64,000 nt of DNA from Parcubacteria group bacterium M10-OD1-1 (lineage in GTDB: Bacteria; Patescibacteriota; Minisyncoccia; Moranbacterales; UBA2206): NCBI GenBank assembly GCA_003056145.1, contig LSNL01000001.1, positions 73,351-137,350 of the forward strand, read 5' to 3'. The notes under the pieces were generated by a model, which saw only the letters and a list, made by a program, of their open reading frames with translations, was not told where the DNA came from and made no database searches. Position numbers and translations under genes: made by a program. How positions within the stretch are numbered: position 1 is the stretch's first letter; every line of letters starts with the position of its first letter. Shown in pieces: positions 381 through 59,491 of this stretch.

Positions 381-1655
381 ATGTTGTTTAGATTTTTATT
401 ATTATTGGCGGTCTATTTGCCATTTCAAATTGCTCTAAACCCTATCAAAGGAATTGATATGGCTTCTTTAAGGGTCTTGATTTTGATTTTGTTTTTTTGC
501 TGGTTAGCTGAAGGATTGCGGAGAAAAAAAATTCAATTAAAAAAAGAAAAAATAACTTTTTTAATTATAATTTTTCTTTTCCTGAGCTTTTTTTCAATTT
601 TTTTTGCTAATAATTTTGATTGGTCAGGACGAAAAATTTTATATCTTTTTTCTATATTTCCTATTTATTTTGTTATGCAGGATGTTATTGTTAGTAAAAA
701 GCAAATGCAAAGAATTATTCAAAAGTTAGTCTTGGCGGGTAGTTTAATCTCTGTTTTAGGCATCTTTCAAGTGATTTGGCAATTCTTTATTCCAATTAAA
801 CAAGAATTTTATTTTTGGTCACATTATGTAACACCAATATTTTTAGGAAAAAACTTAGGATTAGCTGTTATGACTTATCCTAGTTGGCTAGTTAATATAG
901 CTGGAAAAACTTATTTTCGGGCGGTAGCTATTTTCCCTGATCCGCATATGTTTTCTTTCTTTTTAGGATTATTATTGCCGTTGGCTATAGCAGTTTGGCG
1001 AAAAGAAAAAAATAATAAGTGGTTATTAGCGTTTCTAAGTATTTTTTTGGCGGATATTTTAACTTTTTCACGAGGAGGTTATTTTGGTCTTTTAGCCGGT
1101 TTTTTGTTTTTTATAATTATTTTATTAAATAATAAAAAGAAAAAATATAAATTTTTAATAGTAGCTACTTTAATTTTAGCTTTTGGTTTAATAATTCCTA
1201 ATCCTATTACTACCCGTTTTTTATCTAGTTTTAATTTACAAGAAGGTTCCAACGCTGGACGAATAAAAATGTGGCAAGATGCTATTAAAATAATAAAAGA
1301 GAAGCCTTTCTATGGCGCAGGAATTGGTAATTTTCCTTTAACAGTAAATTCTTTAGCTACTTATCGGGAGCCTATTTATGCACACAATACTTATTTAGAT
1401 ATTTCGGTTGATTCAGGTATTTTAGCTGGTTTAGCTTGGTTATCAATTTTATTTTTAGCTTGGCTAAAATTTTTCCAAAAAAGAAAAGAAGATATTATTT
1501 ATTTAGGCTTAGCGGTTAGTATAGTTATTTTTTCAGTACATTCTTTTTTTGACACAGCTATTTATTCACCAGTTGTTCTAACTTTACTTTTAATGATTTT
1601 GAGTTTTAGCCTAATTAAGGTTAGAATTAAAAAAGAAGAAAATAGTTTAAAGTAA
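381..1655 (+). CDS. O-antigen ligase / Wzy_C family polytopic membrane protein
   Basis: 424 aa with >10 predicted TM helices. Contains SRGGYFGLLAGFLFF and AHNTYLDISVDSGILAGLAWL, the H..N / G..G signature of O-antigen ligase-like proteins. Confidence 0.55.
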   Translation: MLFRFLLLLAVYLPFQIALNPIKGIDMASLRVLILILFFCWLAEGLRRKKIQLKKEKITFLIIIFLFLSFFSIFFANNFDWSGRKILYLFSIFPIYFVMQDVIVSKKQMQRIIQKLVLAGSLISVLGIFQVIWQFFIPIKQEFYFWSHYVTPIFLGKNLGLAVMTYPSWLVNIAGKTYFRAVAIFPDPHMFSFFLGLLLPLAIAVWRKEKNNKWLLAFLSIFLADILTFSRGGYFGLLAGFLFFIIILLNNKKKKYKFLIVATLILAFGLIIPNPITTRFLSSFNLQEGSNAGRIKMWQDAIKIIKEKPFYGAGIGNFPLTVNSLATYREPIYAHNTYLDISVDSGILAGLAWLSILFLAWLKFFQKRKEDIIYLGLAVSIVIFSVHSFFDTAIYSPVVLTLLLMILSFSLIKVRIKKEENSLK

Positions 1656-1661
1656 TTTCTA

Positions 1662-2858
1662 ATGAAAAATAAATTTAAAAAAATATTTCTTTTAGAAAAT
1701 TTGGTTTATGGAGTAATTTTATTACTGCCTCTTTATCTAGTAAAAATAAAATTTTTATTTTGGCCATCTAATTGGTTAGAAATTTTAATCGGGCTTACTC
1801 TAATTGGGTGGTGGTTTAAAAAAAGAAAAAATTTTAATTTAAAGTTTTTTTTAAAAAACTATCAAAAATATATTATAGCTATTAGTTTAATAGCCGGAGG
1901 GTTTTTTCTTTCAGTTTGGGCGAGTAATGATGCAATAAAATCATTAGGAGCAATTAAAGGCTGGTTTTTAGCTCCTTTACTTTTTATTTTGATTGCTGGA
2001 GATATAATTGGTAAGAAAAAGATAAAAAATATTTTTCAGGCTTATTTTTTCTCAGCTTTTATCGTATCTATTATTGCTTTAGGTTATCTAATTTTACAAA
2101 AACTGACTTATGATAGACGCCTAGAAGCTTTTTTTAATTCTCCAAATTATTTAGCAATGTATTTAGCGCCAGCTCTAGCTGGAATAATAATTAAGCTAAT
2201 TTTAGAAACCAAAAGAAAGAATAAGTTAATGTCTATTTATTTAATTGTTCCTATTTTAGTAGCTTTTTATTGGACTTTTTCTTATTCGGCTTGGTTAGCT
2301 GTTGGACTAGCTATTTTAGCAGTTTTAACTTTAAAATTCAAACATAATAAAAAGAAAATTGTAGCTAGTATAATAATTATCTTAGCTGGTTTTTTATTGA
2401 TTTTTTCTAGTCAATTAAATAATAAAAAATTTATAGCTTTGGTTGATTTTAATAATCGATCATCAGTTGCTTCACGGGTTATTATTTGGCGAGTAACTTG
2501 GCGAGCTATTGAAGATCATTGGTTTTTAGGAATTGGAATGAATAATTTTCAAACAACTTATCTTAGCTATCAGAAAGAGTTTCCTCCTTATTTGGAATGG
2601 GCGGTTCCACACCCGCATAATCTTTACTTAGCTTTTTGGTTATCGGGAGGGATACTCAGTTTAATAGGTTTTTTTATGTTTTTATTTTTTTGGTTTCAAA
2701 ATATTTTTCAAAAATTAAAAAAGGATAACCAAATTTTATTTTGGATGACCCTTGGATTGATGCTGGTCATCTTATTTCATGGTTTTGTTGATACAACCTA
2801 TTTTAAAAATGATTTAGCTATTATTTTTTGGATGAACTTATTAGTTTGTATAAAATAA
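1662..2858 (+). CDS. O-antigen ligase / Wzy_C family membrane protein, paralog
   Basis: 398 aa polytopic protein. Motifs FSYSAWLAVGLAILA and PHPHNLYLAFWLSGGILSLIGF. Tandem paralog of the preceding gene. Confidence 0.55.
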   Translation: MKNKFKKIFLLENLVYGVILLLPLYLVKIKFLFWPSNWLEILIGLTLIGWWFKKRKNFNLKFFLKNYQKYIIAISLIAGGFFLSVWASNDAIKSLGAIKGWFLAPLLFILIAGDIIGKKKIKNIFQAYFFSAFIVSIIALGYLILQKLTYDRRLEAFFNSPNYLAMYLAPALAGIIIKLILETKRKNKLMSIYLIVPILVAFYWTFSYSAWLAVGLAILAVLTLKFKHNKKKIVASIIIILAGFLLIFSSQLNNKKFIALVDFNNRSSVASRVIIWRVTWRAIEDHWFLGIGMNNFQTTYLSYQKEFPPYLEWAVPHPHNLYLAFWLSGGILSLIGFFMFLFFWFQNIFQKLKKDNQILFWMTLGLMLVILFHGFVDTTYFKNDLAIIFWMNLLVCIK

Positions 2859-8954: not shown

Positions 8955-9494
8955 TTTATTATGGGTGATTGTTATGCAAGACTTAATAAATGTTAACATA
9001 AATAATCTAAAATTAAAAGAAAAATCATTAAAGTCCTGAAGATAAATTTATAATTATTATATAAATAAACCTACCGATATTGTTTATCTTTAAAGGAAAT
9101 TTTATTTTTTAATTCCTAATATTTTTTATAAAATAATTAATTTGTGAATAACTAAATCTATTTACTGTGAAAGTTAGTTTTCTTTTGAAAAAAGAAAACT
9201 AACTAATTTAATATAAAAAGGTCTCAGTTACATTATAAAAAATTAAAAGTAGCCTAATTTAAATAAATCTAGCTATAAAATTACATAATAAGTAAAGTTC
9301 AGTTTAAAAATAAGGTCTCTCCTTAAGTTGGACGTTTTGCTTAAATAATTTATTTTTAAATAAAAAATATATTTGATCAATAAAGCTTAGTATTAAGGTA
9401 AAATATTGGTTAAGTTTTTTTAAATATGTTGTAGATAGGCTTTTCATGAAAAGATTTTTGTGGTGAAATACTAACAATACTCGAACCTATTTTG

Positions 9495-9678
9495 AAAAAA
9501 ACAACTAACAAATCGGAACATGCCTCGGTGCACCTTCGCATTGTTTTGTCTGCGAACGAAGTTTGCCTTGGTAAGGATATTGTAATCCGAGCGCGAACTT
9601 ATTTCGAGAACAATAGCTAGGAAGCGGAACGCTTCGCGTACTTTTTCTCGCGCTCTGCGAGCGTGAAGTTTTAATTTG
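9495..9678 (-). ncRNA. Candidate structured ncRNA (unidentified), GC-rich island immediately 3' of tRNA-Ala
   Basis: ~185 nt at ~50% GC in a ~28% GC background. Nested perfect hairpins: cgctc-tgc-gagcg, gaagcg-gaa-cgcttc, ttcgca-N10-tgcgaa, and the self-complementary ggtgcacc. The minus-strand sense ends in a U-run. Family and strand unresolved. Confidence 0.35.
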
Positions 9679-10035: not shown

Positions 10036-12066
10036 ATGAGTGTCTCTAATTTTTTAAATAAACTTAAAACTAAACCAGATATATGGTTCTTTTCGGTTTT
10101 TTTATTGACTTTTACTCTTAATATTAGAAAAGTATTATTTTACTTTCCTCAACAAGGAACATTTAATGAATATACTGGAATATATGTTTATATGTCAGAT
10201 ATATTCTTATTATTAACCATAGGTTTATGGTTAATATCATTATATTACAATAATATATTTAAATTGTCAAGGGATAAGCTGTGGATAACTTATTTTTTCT
10301 CTAAAAAATATCTAATAATCCCCTTAGCTCTAGTTATATGGTCATTTATATCTATTTTTTGGTCTAGCTATCAGTCCATAGCTTTTTTTAGATCAATAAA
10401 GCTATTGGAATTTTACTTACTTTACTTATATGTAATTTTTAGATTTAGTCCTTTTTTCTTTATTAAACAAGACTATGATAATAAAATAAAGGAAGGGGAA
10501 AAAATATTAGAAGTTAACCAATTGAATGTACTGAAAAATGTTCCACGTGGAACATTTTTTAATTTTAAATATAAAGAAATAATCCGATATTTCTTTCTGA
10601 CGATTGTTGGTATAAGTGTAATTCAATCAATTATTGCCATTAATCAGGTAATTATTCAAAAATCAGTGGGTTTAGGCGCTTTGAGAGAAAGTTTTATATC
10701 TCCTAGCTTACCAGGAGTAGCTAAAGTGATTTTAGGAGGAGATAAATATATTAGAGCTTATGGTTTAATGCCTCATCCTAATATTTTAGGTGGTTTTTTG
10801 TTGTTTTCAATAGTAATAAGTCTACTCTACTTAAAATTGTTCCACGTGGAACAATTCGCTTTTGTTGAAAAAGGCGGGATGGCTTCAAAAAAGGATGGAA
10901 GTAAAAGTAATAGACTTGTCGGATTGAAAATGTTCCACGTGGAACATTTTCAAAAGAAAAGTAGTTTTTTTAACTCAGTAATGTTCCACGTGGAACATTT
11001 TAAGAAAAAATATTTTTCACCGCCTTCGTCTCAAGAACAAATTGTTCCACGTGGAACAATTTTAAGTAAAATCTGGCATGTAGTTAGATGGCGAGGTATG
11101 ATGAAAGTATGTTTTTTAGATAGCTACATTTTTATTAAAAAGTTTGTTAAAAAAGATAAATGGCTTATTAAAGCCTTTATTTTAATTCAAGTCCTAGCTC
11201 TTTTTTTAAGTTTCTCCAAATCGGCAATTATAGGTTTAGTTATTTCTTTAATTTATATTGTATATAAATTAAATGTTCCACGTGGAACATTTATATTGCA
11301 ATGGAAAAAAATAAGATTAGTAACTAGCTTAAGATATTTTCGCATATCAATACTGATGATATTAGTGATATGTTCCTTTATAATAATATTTCTAAAGCCA
11401 GATTTTAATACTGTATTTTTTCAATCATTACGAGAACGTTTATTTTATCTAAATGTTTCACGTGGAACAATTTTAAGTAGTCCGATTTTGGGAATTGGAT
11501 CAGGACAATTTGTGATAAATATCCCTTATTTCTCCCAAAATGTTGTTTTGCCTTGGGAATATCAACCAGTGCATAATGTTTTTCTACTGGTTTGGAGCGA
11601 ATTAGGAATAATTGGAGTAGTTTTGTTTTCTTGGTTTATTTTAAAATTGTTCCACGTGGAACAATTTAATTTGCTTAAAAAAGATAACTTAACTTCAAAG
11701 AAAGATGAAAATAAAAATAAAAAGTTCCTCGGATTAAAAATGTTCCACGTGGAACATTTTGAGAAAAAAGAATCATTATTGCATGTAGTTAAAGAGACAA
11801 TTGTTCCACGTGGAACAAATGAACATTTTGAAAAAAATAGGAATAAAGAAATTAATAGTATAGCTAAAAGAAACAAGAAAGATAATATATTATACAATAA
11901 GAATAGATATTTGTCAATGAATTATCTTCTTATTTATTTTCAGGGAATATTATTGGGTTTCGTTTTTATTATGCTTTTTGACCATTATTTGTGGGATATT
12001 CAGCAAGGTAGCGTCTTGTTTTGGCTAGTTTGCGGATTTATTGTTGGAAATAAGAAAGTGTGTTAA
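10036..12066 (+). CDS. O-antigen-ligase-like membrane protein carrying ten in-frame palindromic insertions and an internal duplication
   Basis: 676-aa uninterrupted ORF. N-terminus is polytopic membrane. Ligase motifs appear twice (MPHPNILGGFLLFS…LYLKLFHVEQF and PVHNVFLLVWSELGIIGVV…FILKLFHVEQF). The C-terminus resembles the neighbouring ligase paralogs. Confidence 0.5.
   Translation: MSVSNFLNKLKTKPDIWFFSVFLLTFTLNIRKVLFYFPQQGTFNEYTGIYVYMSDIFLLLTIGLWLISLYYNNIFKLSRDKLWITYFFSKKYLIIPLALVIWSFISIFWSSYQSIAFFRSIKLLEFYLLYLYVIFRFSPFFFIKQDYDNKIKEGEKILEVNQLNVLKNVPRGTFFNFKYKEIIRYFFLTIVGISVIQSIIAINQVIIQKSVGLGALRESFISPSLPGVAKVILGGDKYIRAYGLMPHPNILGGFLLFSIVISLLYLKLFHVEQFAFVEKGGMASKKDGSKSNRLVGLKMFHVEHFQKKSSFFNSVMFHVEHFKKKYFSPPSSQEQIVPRGTILSKIWHVVRWRGMMKVCFLDSYIFIKKFVKKDKWLIKAFILIQVLALFLSFSKSAIIGLVISLIYIVYKLNVPRGTFILQWKKIRLVTSLRYFRISILMILVICSFIIIFLKPDFNTVFFQSLRERLFYLNVSRGTILSSPILGIGSGQFVINIPYFSQNVVLPWEYQPVHNVFLLVWSELGIIGVVLFSWFILKLFHVEQFNLLKKDNLTSKKDENKNKKFLGLKMFHVEHFEKKESLLHVVKETIVPRGTNEHFEKNRNKEINSIAKRNKKDNILYNKNRYLSMNYLLIYFQGILLGFVFIMLFDHYLWDIQQGSVLFWLVCGFIVGNKKVC
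10534..11818. repeat. Ten dispersed copies of a 16-bp perfect palindrome TGTTCCACGTGGAACA inside one gene, often extended to 18-26 bp by A/T runs
   Basis: Cores at 10539, 10838, 10931, 10982, 11043, 11274, 11454 (variant gtttcac), 11648, 11741 and 11802. Spacing is irregular (59-300 bp). The palindrome has no stop in any frame, giving the peptide motifs VPRGT / FHVE(H/Q)F / CSTWN. Confidence 0.9.
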
Positions 12067-12089: not shown

Positions 12090-12183
12090 TAAGACTAAGA
12101 CTAAGACTAAGACTAAGACTAAGACTAAGACTAAGACTAAGACTAAGACTAAGACTAAGACTAAGACTAAGACTAAGACTAGA
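12090..12183. repeat. Hexanucleotide microsatellite (TAAGAC)x15.5
   Basis: Perfect tandem repeat directly visible in the sequence, starting 24 bp after the stop of the palindrome-bearing gene and ~110 bp upstream of the next ORF. Confidence 0.95.
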
Positions 12184-16506: not shown

Positions 16507-16815
16507 TTATTGGGAATCTAAATTAGTGATTTTATCAGCATTAGATTGATTAGGTAAGGGCTTGCTTTTTAAACTTTGATTGATTTCTTGAGTAGTTTTT
16601 AAAATTGATTTTTTCTGTTGCTGGAATTCATTAATAATGGACTGTTGATTAGCAGAGGAAGGAATAACTTTTAATTGAGCTTTTTGATTAAGTAGAGAAA
16701 AAACCCAAATAAAAATAATAAAAAACATAGAAATTATAGTCGTTATCCAAACGTAACGCAAACGAATATTCTCCGGTTTTCTTCTGATTTCTTCAATTTT
16801 ATTATAAATGCCCAT
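16507..16815 (-). CDS. Hypothetical small single-pass membrane protein
   Basis: 102 aa with one TM segment (ITTIISMFFIIFIWVFSLL) and a Q/N-rich tail. Confidence 0.3.
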   Translation of the reverse strand: MGIYNKIEEIRRKPENIRLRYVWITTIISMFFIIFIWVFSLLNQKAQLKVIPSSANQQSIINEFQQQKKSILKTTQEINQSLKSKPLPNQSNADKITNLDSQ

Positions 16816-56446: not shown

Positions 56447-56851
56447 ATGCAATTTAATGTCCCACAATTTATTAGTATAGAAGATAAGATAGTTGGTCCT
56501 TTTACGGCTAAGCAATTAGGTTGGTTGGCTATTGGTGGAATCATCTTCTTAATACTATGGAGTATGTTGGATACTTCAAGTCTGATTATAACTGGCTTAA
56601 TTGATGCGGTTATTTTTGGAGCCTTAGCTTTTTATAAACCTTATAGTCAGCCGTTGAATAAATTTTTAATGTCATCAGTTCATTTTTTCTTTCGTCCTAA
56701 AATATATGTTTGGAAGAGAAACTATGATAATATAAGAGCGGTACCAAGAAATCATCTAACAAATAAAAAACCAAAGCCAATAAAAAAGAAAGTTTTAAAG
56801 AGTGACAAGATAAAAGAAATTTCTAAAAGATTAGACGGTATTAGAGAATAA
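56447..56851 (+). CDS. Small two-TM protein, VirB3/PrgI-like
   Basis: 134 aa with two TM helices immediately upstream of the VirB4-like ORFs, as for VirB3/PrgI in T4SS loci. Confidence 0.35.
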   Translation: MQFNVPQFISIEDKIVGPFTAKQLGWLAIGGIIFLILWSMLDTSSLIITGLIDAVIFGALAFYKPYSQPLNKFLMSSVHFFFRPKIYVWKRNYDNIRAVPRNHLTNKKPKPIKKKVLKSDKIKEISKRLDGIRE

Positions 56852-56973
56852 ACTAAAAAAAATAAATTAAATTTCAAATAGACTGAGAAACTTCAAAAAA
56901 GTTTTTGAATAGAGGTAACGTTGACTAAACAAAAATTGAAATTTAAGGAACTAAAAACTAAAAATAAATAGGT

Positions 56974-57663
56974 ATGGAAATATTACATTCAGATAAGCTA
57001 ACTAAAAAAACAGCGACTTCTCCGACACAAAAATATCTAGATGTAGCAGAGGTTAAGGAAGACATCGTAGTTTTAAAAAATGGTTCTTTGAGAGCTGTTT
57101 TAGCAGTTTCGGCTATTAATTTTGATCTTAAATCTACTGAAGAGCAAGAAGCTATTATTAACCAATATCAAAATTTTCTCAACTCTATTGATTTCCCAGT
57201 ACAAATTATCATTAGTTCTAGAAAATTAAATATGCAAAGTTATTTAGATTTTTTGAGTACTAAGGAAAGAAGACAAGATAATGAATTATTGAGATTACAA
57301 ATTACGGAATACAAAAGCTTTATTGATCAACTAGTAAAGGATTCTAATATAATGGAAAAAAATTTTTATATCGTTATTCCTTTTTCTCCAATGGAAAATA
57401 AGGAGAAAGGCTTTATTAGTAATTTATTTAATACTTTTAACTCAAGAAAAAATATTTTAGAAAAAAGAGAAAATTTTGAAACTTATAAAAGCCAATTATA
57501 CCAGAGAGTGGATCATATTATTTCGGCGTTAGCAGGTATCGGTTTGAGAATAATTCCGCTTAAAACGGAAGAATTAATTGAGCTTTTATTTAATTCTTAT
57601 AATCCAGAACTTTACAGAGCGACTACTCTTAAAGATGTAAGTAAATTAGAACTGATGAAATGA
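56974..57663 (+). CDS. VirB4-like N-terminal domain ORF (possibly the 5' part of a split virB4)
   Basis: 229 aa, ends with TGA 4 nt before the ATG of the VirB4 ATPase ORF in another frame. Combined length ~836 aa equals a typical VirB4. Confidence 0.4.
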   Translation: MEILHSDKLTKKTATSPTQKYLDVAEVKEDIVVLKNGSLRAVLAVSAINFDLKSTEEQEAIINQYQNFLNSIDFPVQIIISSRKLNMQSYLDFLSTKERRQDNELLRLQITEYKSFIDQLVKDSNIMEKNFYIVIPFSPMENKEKGFISNLFNTFNSRKNILEKRENFETYKSQLYQRVDHIISALAGIGLRIIPLKTEELIELLFNSYNPELYRATTLKDVSKLELMK

Positions 57664-57667
57664 AATT

Positions 57668-59491
57668 ATGTTAAATATATTTAAAAAAAATCAAAATCAA
57701 AAAAAATCTCAACCAGTTGACGAAGTTTTAGAGAGTGAAAGATACTATCAAGAAGGAGTGTCTAAGTTAAATGATTTAATTGCTCCAGCTGCGATAAAAA
57801 TCAATTCTCGCAATATTAGAGTAGGAGAAACGTTAGTACAAACAATTTTTGTAATTGCTTATCCTAGATTTCTACATAGTAATTGGTTCTCTCCAATTAT
57901 TAATATTGATATGCCTATTGATATTTCAATGTTTATCCATCCAGTAGATACTTATGACATTTTAAAGACTCTTAAGAAGAATGCTACTAGAGTGGAGTCA
58001 CAAATCCACATAGAACAACAAAAAGGAATGATTAATGATCCAGCTTTGGAAACAGCAGTACAAGATATTGATGAATTGAGAAGTAATCTTCAGCAAGGAA
58101 CCGAAAAGTTTTTCCGTTTTGGTTTATATATTACTGTTTATGGTGAAAATGAAAAAGATTTAAATGAAGCTACTCATTCTATAGAAGCTATTTTAGAAGC
58201 TCAATTAGTGTATGTTAAACCGGCTATTTTTAAATCCGAACAGGGTTTTAATTCTACTTTACCACTCGCTAACGATGAATTAGATATTGGGACTAGTATG
58301 AATAGTTCTCCTCTTTCTACTACTTTTCCTTTTGTTTCCTCTACTCTTTCTACTAATAAAGGTATTCTTTATGGTATTAACCGACATAATAATAGTTTAG
58401 TGATTTTCGATCGTTTTGAGATGGAGAATGCTAATATGGTAGTTTTTGCTAAATCAGGAGCTGGAAAAAGTTATACTGTTAAATTAGAAATTTTAAGGTC
58501 GCTAATGTTGGGAACTAATGTAGTAATTATTGATCCAGAAAATGAATACAAACATCTTTGTGAGACAGTTGGAGGAACTTTTATTAAAATATCGCTTAAC
58601 TCAAAAAATCATTTAAACCCTTTTGATTTACCAAAAATTAAAGATGATGAAGATCCAGAAGATGTTTTAAGAAATAATATCGCTAGTTTGCTGGGATTAT
58701 TACATAGTATGCTAGGAAATATTACTCCAGAAGAAGATTCTATTTTAGATAGAGCGGTGAGAGAAACTTACGCTATTCGGGATATAACCGCTCAAACTGA
58801 TTTTAACTCTATTTCTAGAGAAGCTTATCCGACGATGTCAGATTTATATCAGGTTTTGCAAAGTATGGAAGGAGGAGAGGATTTATCTATTCGGCTAGAA
58901 AAATATACGGAAGGGGTTTTTGCTGGTTTTTTAAATAACACAACTAATGTTAAAATTGATAATCAAATGGTAGTTTTTAATATTCGGGATATGGGAGAAG
59001 AGTTGCGTCCTATTGCAATGTACATTGTGATGCAATTTATTTGGAATGAGATGAGAACTAATTTAAAAAGAAGATTGGTGTTAGTAGATGAGGCGTGGGT
59101 GATGATGAAATATGATGACGCAGCTTCTTTTATGTTTGGAATTGCGAAACGATGTCGTAAATATTATACTGGATTAACGACAATTACTCAGGATGTAGGA
59201 GATTTTCTGTCTTCTCGTTACGGGAAAGCGATTGTAACGAACTCTTCTATTCAATTATTATTAAAACAATCCACCGCTGCGATTGATATGGTTAGTGAAA
59301 CATTTTATTTAACTGATCAAGAAAGATTTTTATTGTTAGAAAGTAATATCGGAGAAGGGATTTTTTTTGCCGGTACTAAACATGTGGCTATTAAAGTAGT
59401 TGCTTCCTATTCAGAAGACCAAATAATTACTACTGATCCAGCTCAGTTAATGAAAATTGATCAGGCTAAAAAAGAATTTAGTGAAGAATAA
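57668..59491 (+). CDS. virB4: Type IV secretion ATPase VirB4/TraC/TrsE family (ATPase domain)
   Basis: Walker A VVFAKSGAGKSYTVK, VIIDPENEY, Walker B RRLVLVDEAWVMM (DEAW) and the C-terminal VirB4 sensor region. Confidence 0.75.
   Translation: MLNIFKKNQNQKKSQPVDEVLESERYYQEGVSKLNDLIAPAAIKINSRNIRVGETLVQTIFVIAYPRFLHSNWFSPIINIDMPIDISMFIHPVDTYDILKTLKKNATRVESQIHIEQQKGMINDPALETAVQDIDELRSNLQQGTEKFFRFGLYITVYGENEKDLNEATHSIEAILEAQLVYVKPAIFKSEQGFNSTLPLANDELDIGTSMNSSPLSTTFPFVSSTLSTNKGILYGINRHNNSLVIFDRFEMENANMVVFAKSGAGKSYTVKLEILRSLMLGTNVVIIDPENEYKHLCETVGGTFIKISLNSKNHLNPFDLPKIKDDEDPEDVLRNNIASLLGLLHSMLGNITPEEDSILDRAVRETYAIRDITAQTDFNSISREAYPTMSDLYQVLQSMEGGEDLSIRLEKYTEGVFAGFLNNTTNVKIDNQMVVFNIRDMGEELRPIAMYIVMQFIWNEMRTNLKRRLVLVDEAWVMMKYDDAASFMFGIAKRCRKYYTGLTTITQDVGDFLSSRYGKAIVTNSSIQLLLKQSTAAIDMVSETFYLTDQERFLLLESNIGEGIFFAGTKHVAIKVVASYSEDQIITTDPAQLMKIDQAKKEFSEE

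Follow-up and report, generated by a model that had tools for sequence, protein, structure and literature searches.

A candidate parS centromere array threaded in-frame through an O-antigen-ligase-like gene near the replication origin of Moranbacteria

In this study, we analysed a 64,000-nucleotide stretch of the genome of the uncultured Parcubacteria group bacterium M10-OD1-1 (the window) and found that ten copies of a 16-bp palindrome are very probably parS sites, forming an origin-proximal centromere array of the Moranbacteria chromosome that is threaded in-frame through a gene for a Wzy_C/O-antigen-ligase-like protein. As the array runs in-frame through one conserved gene, the same DNA would both encode a protein and act as a centromere. 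parS itself is known, and it is the conserved in-gene coding setting that is unusual; every sampled relative among these ultra-small bacteria shares the arrangement. ParB binding, clamp loading and a role of the array in segregation are predictions from sequence.

The palindrome TGTTCCACGTGGAACA occurs nine times exactly and once, at 11454, with a single mismatch (TGTTTCACGTGGAACA; this copy has a TGTTTCAC half-site), as an earlier, sequence-only reading of this DNA had counted, and the 64 kb contain no further match at two or fewer mismatches. All ten sites (10539-11817) fall within the single forward-strand ORF 10036-12066 (Table 1). Shuffled sequence is expected to give 0.01 matches, and none of 100 shuffles reached ten; outside the gene, the remaining ~83 kb of the 84.6 kb read on the source contig contain no copy. 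Both flank subtypes described earlier are present (A..T at five sites and T..A at four), and one site has A..A. Inspection of the sequence also bears out that TGTTCCACGTGGAACA lacks a stop codon whatever the frame and that the ORF is unbroken. An assembly artefact or frameshift behind this continuity, a concern raised by the sequence-only reading, was rejected, as Logan contigs of two independent samples (SRR6439370 and SRR14803398) encode the same protein. The three peptide phases that had been proposed need some correction for this window: five sites are read in the sense frame as FHVE and five as V[PS]RGT, two phases only, whereas CSTWN is confined to an antisense ORF (11562-11897) that is spurious; in orthologues, however, sites read in this phase do occur in the sense frame.

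Table 1. Coordinates of the host gene, the candidate parS sites and the internal cassettes in the window
Feature	Position	Strand	Description
Host gene	10036..12066	+	Wzy_C / O-antigen-ligase-like polytopic membrane protein, 676 aa; Pfam PF04932
Candidate parS site 1	10539..10554	.	exact; (N)VPRGT, ~aa 169, low-confidence loop
Candidate parS site 2	10838..10853	.	exact; (L)FHVEQ, ~aa 269, transmembrane helix end; slot in 57/122 aligned homologues
Candidate parS site 3	10931..10946	.	exact; MFHVEH, ~aa 300, pLDDT<50 loop 284-358
Candidate parS site 4	10982..10997	.	exact; MFHVEH, ~aa 317, pLDDT<50 loop
Candidate parS site 5	11043..11058	.	exact; IVPRGT, ~aa 337, pLDDT<50 loop; slot common to 37 homologues
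Candidate parS site 6	11274..11289	.	exact; NVPRGT, ~aa 414, loop following helix 395-413; slot common to 53 homologues
Candidate parS site 7	11454..11469	.	TGTTTCACGTGGAACA; NVSRGT, ~aa 474, within conserved Wzy_C core helix
Candidate parS site 8	11648..11663	.	exact; LFHVEQ, ~aa 539, transmembrane helix end; slot common to 37 homologues
Candidate parS site 9	11741..11756	.	exact; MFHVEH, ~aa 570, pLDDT<50 loop 559-595
Candidate parS site 10	11802..11817	.	exact; IVPRGT, ~aa 590, pLDDT<50 loop; slot common to ~51 homologues
Multi-site cassette copy A	10831..11059	+	four sites; lysine-rich linker directly after transmembrane helix; repeat families D2, D4, D5
Multi-site cassette copy B	11641..11818	+	three sites; 78-86% identity to copy A over 43-80-nt repeat segments

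The 16-bp inverted repeats match the parS consensus TGTTNCACGTGAAACA, and nine of them are identical to parS2 and parS3 of P. aeruginosa, experimentally defined sites that read exactly TGTTCCACGTGGAACA (PMC4368675). The same 16-mer is the parS of P. putida, and the M. xanthus consensus differs at the last base alone (PMC7022226). A scan of genomes for close pairs of the 16-mer (blocks of at most 8 kb), in which the taxonomic spread of dense arrays is a sample of at least 120 loci, found a Spo0J-like ParB encoded in 49 of 120 such blocks from many phyla among the matches listed, compared with the ~0.2% of blocks expected by chance. Also among the matches listed, a 14-site array occupies 1.7 kb beside parB in an Acidobacteriaceae MAG (L131). 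One viral or plasmid-like contig likewise pairs the 16-mer with a Spo0J homologue. The flanks of the Moranbacteria sites are kept as well (A at -2 in 93%, W at -1 and +1, T at +2 in 91%), which gives the 20-bp extended consensus A-W-TGTTCCACGTGGAACA-W-T (20-mer form, AWTGTTCCACGTGGAACAWT); over 467 unique sites, conservation fades 3-4 bp past the 16-mer on each side and then falls to background. The other-phyla sites among the matches listed have the same but weaker flank preference, including those in genomes with a GC content of at least 55%. The identity of the palindrome with parS had gone unrecognised in the sequence-only reading.

The host gene is of the O-antigen-ligase-like kind that had been suggested: its product matches Wzy_C (PF04932) with a score of 54 bits (cut-off, 31.7; E=2e-14), and PF04932 is annotated on all homologues. 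The AlphaFold2 model (pTM 0.75) has a confident helical core, and its sole PDB fold match, the WaaL ligase 7TPG, is weak (probability 0.99 but E=0.28, TM 0.24/0.38). The earlier placement of the sites in loops of a membrane protein was mostly right, and these loops are poorly structured: in the model, loops with pLDDT below 50 contain six of the ten sites, helix ends another three and the conserved core the remaining one. To judge from the model, the low-confidence loops that hold most sites are likely disordered, and the lysine-rich, site-bearing loops are probably cytoplasmic. Two parS-free paralogues at 381-2858 show mostly gaps where the host gene has its site slots, and the orthologues are syntenic, lying between cca and gyrA. 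The protein appears to tolerate the sites because they sit in loops and at helix ends, take a stop-free form of parS (C5/G12) and have a free position 5. The C5/G12 form is stop-free in all frames, whereas the canonical TGTTTCACGTGAAACA has a TGA in one; position 5 (an N in the parS consensus) would be free to follow the needs of the protein, and the conserved intradomain site takes TCA (Ser).

Sites are present in all 80 orthologous metagenomic loci (1-17 each), with 580 exact copies of TGTTYCACGTGRAACA within the genes versus none in 801 kb of flanks (~10 kb per side); tolerance of one mismatch adds merely 5 matches outside the genes. Ascertainment bias from shared parS words was controlled both by selecting these loci with the parS-independent peptides FDHY[LFI]WDI and FNEY.. 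and by masking the parS words of the query; of the 120 best homologues of the masked query, 118 still carried sites (median 5). The slots keep their positions in orthologues at 30-56% protein identity. The most conserved is that of site 7, which is found in 83 of 122 homologues and belongs to the family consensus YLNVSRGT. Altogether, the dual-coding arrangement spans well over a hundred distinct orthologue clusters. All three reading frames are in use among the homologues (387, 219 and 156 words). Of 212 VPRGT words, 210 are written as GTTCCACGTGGAACA, where codon usage would predict 0.0015; parS likewise encodes 170 of 178 FHVE words and 143 of 147 STWN words, with expectations over the codon tests of 0.0015 to 0.02. 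Given the use of three frames and the near absence of synonymous variation, we ascribe the conservation to selection on the DNA, and the exact 16-mer is, by this codon comparison, under strong purifying selection. Selection at the protein level for a peptide motif (FHVEHF or VPRGT) could be read into the recurrence of these words at conserved slots and into the presence of one in the family consensus, but three frames of the same DNA yield three unrelated peptides and the conserved flanks follow the DNA palindrome whatever the frame. The codon test rejects this explanation, to which we give almost no credence.

The array is also close to the presumed origin of replication. On the source contig, PBP1A, DciA, dnaN and dnaA are followed, beyond a spacer, by rpmH, rnpA, yidC, jag and further genes; the cumulative GC skew has its minimum at dnaN/dnaA, and the clustered sites are 15.2-16.7 kb away from the dnaA-rpmH spacer. 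A left extension of 20.6 kb, which passed from the left-most window protein to PBP1A and reached dnaA, brought the total read to 84.6 kb; GC skew in the window alone is confounded by gene strand, and becomes informative once this extension is added. As a cluster of consensus DnaA boxes was found neither in the window nor in the dnaA spacers, we locate oriC from gene order and GC skew alone. The host gene is 1.8 kb from dnaA in one relative (L201) and ~52 kb from it on contig Ga0172380_10000027, and it is origin-proximal in all three genomes where the distance is measurable.

No ParB, ParA or DnaA was detected in the window by Pfam searches of all ORFs of at least 100 aa or by tblastn with Spo0J. 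Searches for ParB and ParA were likewise negative in the 20.6 kb to the left, in two further PBP1A contexts and in 86 related Moranbacteria loci (~1 Mb; tblastn with Spo0J and Soj, and HMM, E up to 10); the ParB HMM was built from 53 ParBs. The open literature that we searched contained nothing relevant on parS or ParB in Patescibacteria/CPR. With ParB and ParA found neither in 84.6 kb of the contig nor in ~1 Mb of relatives, the reader of the sites is a predicted protein; on the same grounds it might, with low probability, be a non-canonical one.

Under the parS reading, each 16-bp inverted repeat would be a recognition site for ParB dimers, which would then form CTP-dependent clamps and slide outward. 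Ten sites within 1.3 kb may confer a high rate of ParB loading and build one partition complex ~15 kb from oriC. This complex could load SMC, undergo segregation by ParA (provided that the genome encodes it), or both. A bolder version, which we consider unlikely, is that of an obligate "coding centromere", in which transertion of the polytopic host protein would tether the parS complex, and the origin region with it, to the membrane; such a tether might serve for anchoring or segregation in ultra-small CPR cells that possibly lack ParA-type motors.

The gene also carries the internal duplication that had been noted earlier, with 81% matching between 10883-10959 and 11693-11769 and 78% between 10980-11059 and 11739-11818. 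In an orthologue (L003), a 114-nt cassette with three sites is present in three copies. Three-site cassettes have been copied between loops, which appears to be how new sites arise, and the longer cassettes are intragenic and species-specific only. The sequence-only reading had seen in such features either a selfish element or an engineered hotspot. A miniature selfish palindrome (of the REP, MITE or Rickettsia palindromic element type) that colonised the loops in-frame would agree with in-frame sites that are mostly insertions relative to the paralogues, with 114-180-nt cassettes copied within the gene and with copy numbers of 1-17 among orthologues. However, the copies are confined to one origin-proximal gene, and the abundance elsewhere that would mark an ordinary REP/MITE-like repeat was seen neither over the 84.6 kb of contig nor in the flanks of the 80 relatives' loci. 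Moreover, conservation across species covers just ~20 bp, neither an element body nor target-site duplications are present, the slots are kept at the protein divergence given above and the sequence is that of a functional host site, parS; we therefore regard a selfish origin as extremely improbable. A hotspot of intragenic recombination, through which a surface-polysaccharide enzyme would vary in length or antigenicity, could draw on the repeated cassettes, on the differences in site number between species and on the many metagenomic contigs that end inside the gene. Yet independent samples give the same protein, the variable lysine-rich loops, being probably cytoplasmic, would not be exposed epitopes, and a recombination substrate would not need strong purifying selection on the 16-mer. 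With the conserved slots, the origin-proximal position and the identity with parS also against it, this explanation seems very unlikely.

A role in regulation comes nearer to the parS reading, in that a regulator, ParB-like or another dimeric DNA-binding protein, might use the sites as operators to control the ligase gene or genes beside it (linking envelope synthesis with the cell cycle, for example), and the sites would then not be a segregation centromere. Genes near ParB complexes can be silenced in some species (review PMC7022226), the sites sit in a surface-polysaccharide gene, and the searches described above found no ParA or ParB nearby. Nevertheless, ten to seventeen high-affinity sites along a gene body are not the architecture of an operator, the array is origin-proximal wherever its distance could be measured, and the 16-mer with its flanks matches sites of other phyla, many of them beside parB. 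We consider an operator array quite unlikely, and favour an origin-proximal parS array.

If this reading is correct, the array provides a first tangible way into chromosome segregation for Moranbacteria, a branch of the Candidate Phyla Radiation, and an extreme natural case of dual coding, in which up to 17 copies of a predicted 16-20 bp protein-binding site are accommodated in three frames of one membrane-protein gene. It raises the questions of how the host gene could be transcribed and translated alongside ParB clamps, why the array resides in this particular gene and whether the stop-free C5/G12 form of parS predominates owing to coding constraint. In practice, fragmented CPR MAGs could be searched for the motif to find their origin region, and the motif may account for the many metagenomic contigs that end in the host gene.

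Among known systems, parS1-4 of P. aeruginosa resemble the Moranbacteria array in the identical 16-mer (parS2/parS3) and in the clustering of several sites near oriC (PMC4368675). ParB binding is experimental in P. aeruginosa (PMC4368675) and a prediction in Moranbacteria. P. aeruginosa has four origin-proximal sites, of which at least one (parS3) is intergenic, in contrast to ten in one ORF here. A precedent for a centromere site within a coding gene, with parS read in-frame as protein, is B. subtilis, in which a parS site reportedly described by Lin and Grossman in 1998 lies within the coding sequence of spo0J (parB). Spo0J contains NVPRET, which would correspond to GTTCCACGTGAAACA. B. subtilis has one site per gene and about ten scattered origin-proximally, whereas in Moranbacteria one gene holds the array; we know of no dedicated single host gene and no lineage-wide in-gene array in B. 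subtilis.

Plasmid centromere arrays are non-coding tandem repeats beside a par operon. Those such as F sopC are alike in that dense ParB-family sites act as one centromere, and ParB-centromere binding has been studied (PMC3597684). Chromosomal examples include the 22 parS sites of M. xanthus (TGTTCCACGTGGAACG; PMC7022226) and the parS cluster of Streptomyces coelicolor (cited in PMC7022226). Both of these, like the L131 array, have many parS near oriC or parAB, and the density in L131 is comparable, but no long ORF spans the L131 array, unlike the Moranbacteria gene. As far as we know, the arrays of M. xanthus and Streptomyces extend beyond a single ORF, and for none of the three are sites reported that run through one conserved ORF in three frames. 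Rickettsia palindromic elements are selfish sequences of ~100-150 bp that are dispersed in many genes and have no known host function. They are similar in placing palindromic DNA in-frame in coding genes, where it is tolerated in surface loops; however, they occupy many genes, whereas the Moranbacteria unit would be a host centromere site of 16-20 bp that is repeated within one gene.

The palindrome TGTTCCACGTGGAACA is present as nine exact copies and one copy with a single mismatch (TGTTTCACGTGGAACA), and all ten (10/10) lie within one ORF encoding a Wzy_C/O-antigen-ligase family protein (the host gene; see the table). A mismatch-tolerant scan found no further match with up to two mismatches elsewhere in the 64-kb window, confirming the sequence-only reading on this point. 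The shuffled-sequence expectation for the 16-mer is 0.01, and ten copies were reached in 0 of 100 shuffles. Because an identical protein is translated from independently assembled Logan contigs of two sequencing runs, an assembly artefact is ruled out as the source of the unbroken frame. The intragenic duplication was likewise recovered, as segments of ~77-80 nt with 78-81% identity. Among the phase-dependent peptides proposed earlier, FHVE and V[PS]RGT (five times each) do occur in the sense frame, but CSTWN appears here solely in a spurious antisense ORF. That ORF also includes VPRGT and has comparable counterparts at orthologous loci; it arises because the palindromes lack stop codons, and is very probably no gene. 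A perfect hexanucleotide microsatellite, (TAAGAC)x15.3, begins 24 bp 3' of the host-gene stop codon. As the independent Logan contigs stop ~50 bp beyond this codon, at or just inside the repeat, the microsatellite probably breaks short-read assemblies, and its length may be variable.

Features in window coordinates (negative values lie in the left extension)
Feature	Coordinates	Strand	Remarks
dnaA-rpmH spacer	-4905 to -4612		likely oriC region
Wzy_C paralogue	381-1655		424 aa, 0 parS sites
Wzy_C paralogue	1662-2858		398 aa, 0 parS sites
tRNA-Arg/tRNA-Ala gap	8955-9677		~720 bp without ORF
GC-rich end of this gap	9500-9677		final 180 nt
Host gene	10036-12066	+	676 aa
Palindrome array	10539-11817		ten copies
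One-mismatch copy	11454
Cassette copy A	10831-11059
Cassette copy B	11641-11818
Antisense ORF	11562-11897	-	111 aa
TAAGAC microsatellite	12090-12181
Small ORF after gyrA	16507-16815	-	96-123 aa across loci, no Pfam match
PrgI and TraG/VirB4-like genes	~56447-59491

The 16-mer is exactly the perfect palindrome of the parS2/parS3 centromere of Pseudomonas aeruginosa (PMC4368675, Table 1); it also equals parS of P. putida and, except for the last base, the parS present in 22 copies in Myxococcus xanthus (review PMC7022226). It agrees with the general chromosomal parS consensus TGTTNCACGTGAAACA. Scanning 185,579 species genomes for 16-mer pairs 22-50 bp apart gave at least 120 matches and, among the matches listed, the pairs are spread over many phyla. 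Among these, 49 of 120 pair-bearing blocks, each of at most 8 kb, carry a Spo0J-like ParB gene (tblastn E 1e-13 to 1e-77), for which the chance expectation is a few per thousand. The 16-mer and ParB also occur together in 1 of 16 viral or plasmid-like contigs.

The arrangement is widely conserved among relatives. The 120 best homologues belong to Candidatus Moranbacteria and other Patescibacteria (32-58% identity), and 118 of them contain 1-13 parS-encoded peptide words. An unmasked search preselects by shared 5-mers, and it was repeated with all parS words removed from the query: 118 of the 120 best homologues still contained at least one word and 112 at least two, with a median of five. A metagenome scan seeded solely with the non-parS peptides FDHY[LFI]WDI and FNEY[TSA][GSA]x[YF][LVI]Y yielded 80 orthologous loci, every one of which has 1-17 exact copies of TGTTYCACGTGRAACA; in total, 580 copies lie in 154 kb of gene sequence versus none in 801 kb of flanks, and allowing one mismatch adds merely five matches outside the genes. 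Synteny is conserved as well, in the order cca (-), host gene (+), further genes, gyrA (-), a small ORF, Lactamase_B_3, S1, cmk, tilS and ftsH. Alignment of the homologues resolves ~14 recurrent parS slots of constant phase, among which NVSRGT is the strongest (83 of 122 homologues). The window's two tandem Wzy_C paralogues serve as natural parS-free comparators and have mostly gaps at these slots; both close a polysaccharide cluster (Polysacc_synt and two GT2 genes) directly after rpmH-rnpA-yidC-jag. The small ORF between gyrA and the Lactamase_B_3 gene is kept in all relatives examined, including the loci L003, L005 and L006. A parS look-alike with two mismatches, TGTTCCACATGGAATA, recurs at the same gyrA position in many relatives (for example L005 14998, L165 16428 and L201 14401) and most likely represents conserved codons, not a parS site. 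One locus from a MAG labelled Bdellovibrionales (L083, contig end, GC 0.34) has eight sites at 724-2262 in a 513-aa ORF 28% identical to the host protein; this points either to mis-binning of Patescibacteria DNA or to another lineage that has a coding centromere.

Selection acts on the DNA of the sites. All three frames are in use across homologues (V[PS]R[GE]T 387, FHV[EK] 219, STWN 156). In orthologous genes, VPRGT is parS-encoded (GTTCCACGTGGAACA) in 210 of 212 cases, FHVE in 170 of 178 and STWN in 143 of 147, compared with fractions of 0.0015, ~0.02 and ~0.008 expected from local codon usage; the Arg codon within sites is CGT, although AGA is the favoured one. This three-frame use and the codon test rule out a peptide repeat. 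The conserved unit is longer than the 16-mer, being the 20-bp palindrome AWTGTTCCACGTGGAACAWT, with flanks A(-2) 93%, W(-1), W(+1) and T(+2) 91% (467 unique sites from the 80 loci and the window). The same A-W/W-T preference, though weaker, is seen at sites of other phyla, including genomes with GC of at least 55%, in a comparison set where parB is present at 49 of the 120 listed loci. This shared preference ties the host-gene sites to ordinary parS behaviour, and suggests that ParB may generally prefer particular flanks beyond the 16-mer; we know of no statement of such a preference. The 467 sites comprise 419 of the C5/G12 form, 30 with T5, 10 with A12 and 8 with both. C5/G12 is the sole parS form that has no stop codon in any frame, TGTTTCACGTGAAACA giving TGA in one, and we infer that this property explains its dominance in these AT-rich genomes.

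The array also lies near the likely origin. The 20.6 kb to the left of the window were read from LSNQ01000012.1 (GCA_003056095.1), joined via exact protein matches to give 84.6 kb of contiguous sequence, in which the ten host-gene sites are the only ones even at up to two mismatches. The order in the extension is RuvB, RuvC, RimK-like genes and PBP1A (+), DciA, dnaN and dnaA (-), then rpmH, rnpA, yidC and jag (+), followed by polysaccharide genes up to the window start. From the dnaA-rpmH spacer and the cumulative GC-skew minimum at dnaN/dnaA, the parS cluster is placed 15.2-16.7 kb from the likely oriC; gene order and skew alone locate this origin, since no consensus DnaA-box cluster was found in the window and dnaA spacers. 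In the relative L201, dnaN and dnaA are followed by two small ORFs, the orthologue (nine sites) and gyrA, and on contig Ga0172380_10000027 the orthologue lies ~52 kb from dnaA. Elsewhere in the window, the end of the tRNA-Arg/tRNA-Ala gap is markedly GC-rich for the genome, with a U-run closing its minus strand; no Rfam family matched it at E up to 0.1, its predicted fold does not surpass those of shuffles (z = -0.96), and it could be a small RNA not described before. PrgI-family and TraG/VirB4-like ATPase genes, surrounded by large ORFs without Pfam match, indicate a putative type IV secretion or conjugation-like cluster, such as has been described for Patescibacteria.

An AlphaFold2 model of the host protein (pTM 0.75) combines a confidently predicted helical core with three long stretches of low confidence; its sole PDB fold match, a weak one, is the WaaL O-antigen ligase. 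Six sites fall in loops with pLDDT<50 (about aa 169, 300, 317, 337, 570 and 590), which are probably cytoplasmic because they are lysine-rich (positive-inside rule). Three more are at transmembrane-helix ends (about aa 269, 414 and 539), and one (about aa 474), a TGTTTCAC variant coding Ser, lies within a conserved helix and belongs to the family consensus YLNVSRGT. Through copying from loop to loop, three-site cassettes are present as two copies in the host gene and as three 114-nt copies with 83-86% identity in the orthologue L003, making cassette copying a plausible route to more sites per gene. Start-to-start spacing of adjacent sites in the 80 loci is non-uniform, with peaks at 37, 40-41, 47, 49-50, 59 and 110 bp in counts that ignore kinship; inheritance of cassettes or helical phasing may account for the peaks.

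These data bear on the two explanations offered by the sequence-only reading. A selfish element colonizing the gene is rejected: in the 84.6 kb read and the flanks of relatives the motif is restricted to one gene, no element body surrounds it, its slots are conserved and it serves the host as a functional site. Antigenic variation through a recombination hotspot is unlikely, given that samples agree in the protein, that the variable loops probably face the cytoplasm and that strict purifying selection acts on the core 16-mer. A third explanation, an operator array with a purely regulatory role, has a small probability and fits the array architecture poorly.

Binding of ParB to the host-gene sites is instead the preferred reading, drawn from the exact parS match, including flank preferences, and from how unlikely it is that some unrelated protein acquired an identical 16-20 bp specificity. 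No dnaA, parA or parB was found within the 64-kb window, and an HMM from 53 ParBs (E up to 10) detected no ParB/ParA in the window, the left extension or ~1 Mb of Moranbacteria loci. Each site would nucleate ParB dimers, which would shut into CTP-dependent clamps and then slide; a dense array near oriC could thereby raise the loading rate and form a single partition complex serving ParA-driven segregation and/or SMC loading. A small, gene-dense genome may house such an array in the permissive loops of a membrane-protein gene near the origin, where the stop-free variant, together with the degeneracy of parS position 5, would let protein and DNA constraints coexist.

Searches of the open literature turned up no study of parS or ParB in Patescibacteria/CPR. 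parS within coding sequence is already known, since in Bacillus subtilis it likewise lies inside a gene, spo0J. Multi-site parS arrays near oriC are also known, M. xanthus and Streptomyces having similar ones (PMC7022226). What we have not found described is a whole centromere array that a single conserved ORF carries in-frame and exclusively, using all three phases, across a class-level CPR lineage. Dense arrays outside Patescibacteria were mostly outside long ORFs in the sample examined, among the matches listed. One non-coding array, at L131, a locus of an Acidobacteriaceae MAG (CAWCRD010000006.1), has 14 copies of the 16-mer in 1.7 kb (1027-2761) and exceeds in density every parS array we know from the literature. 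It resembles the host-gene array in density, but no long ORF spans it, and it lies ~1 kb upstream of a parB homologue.
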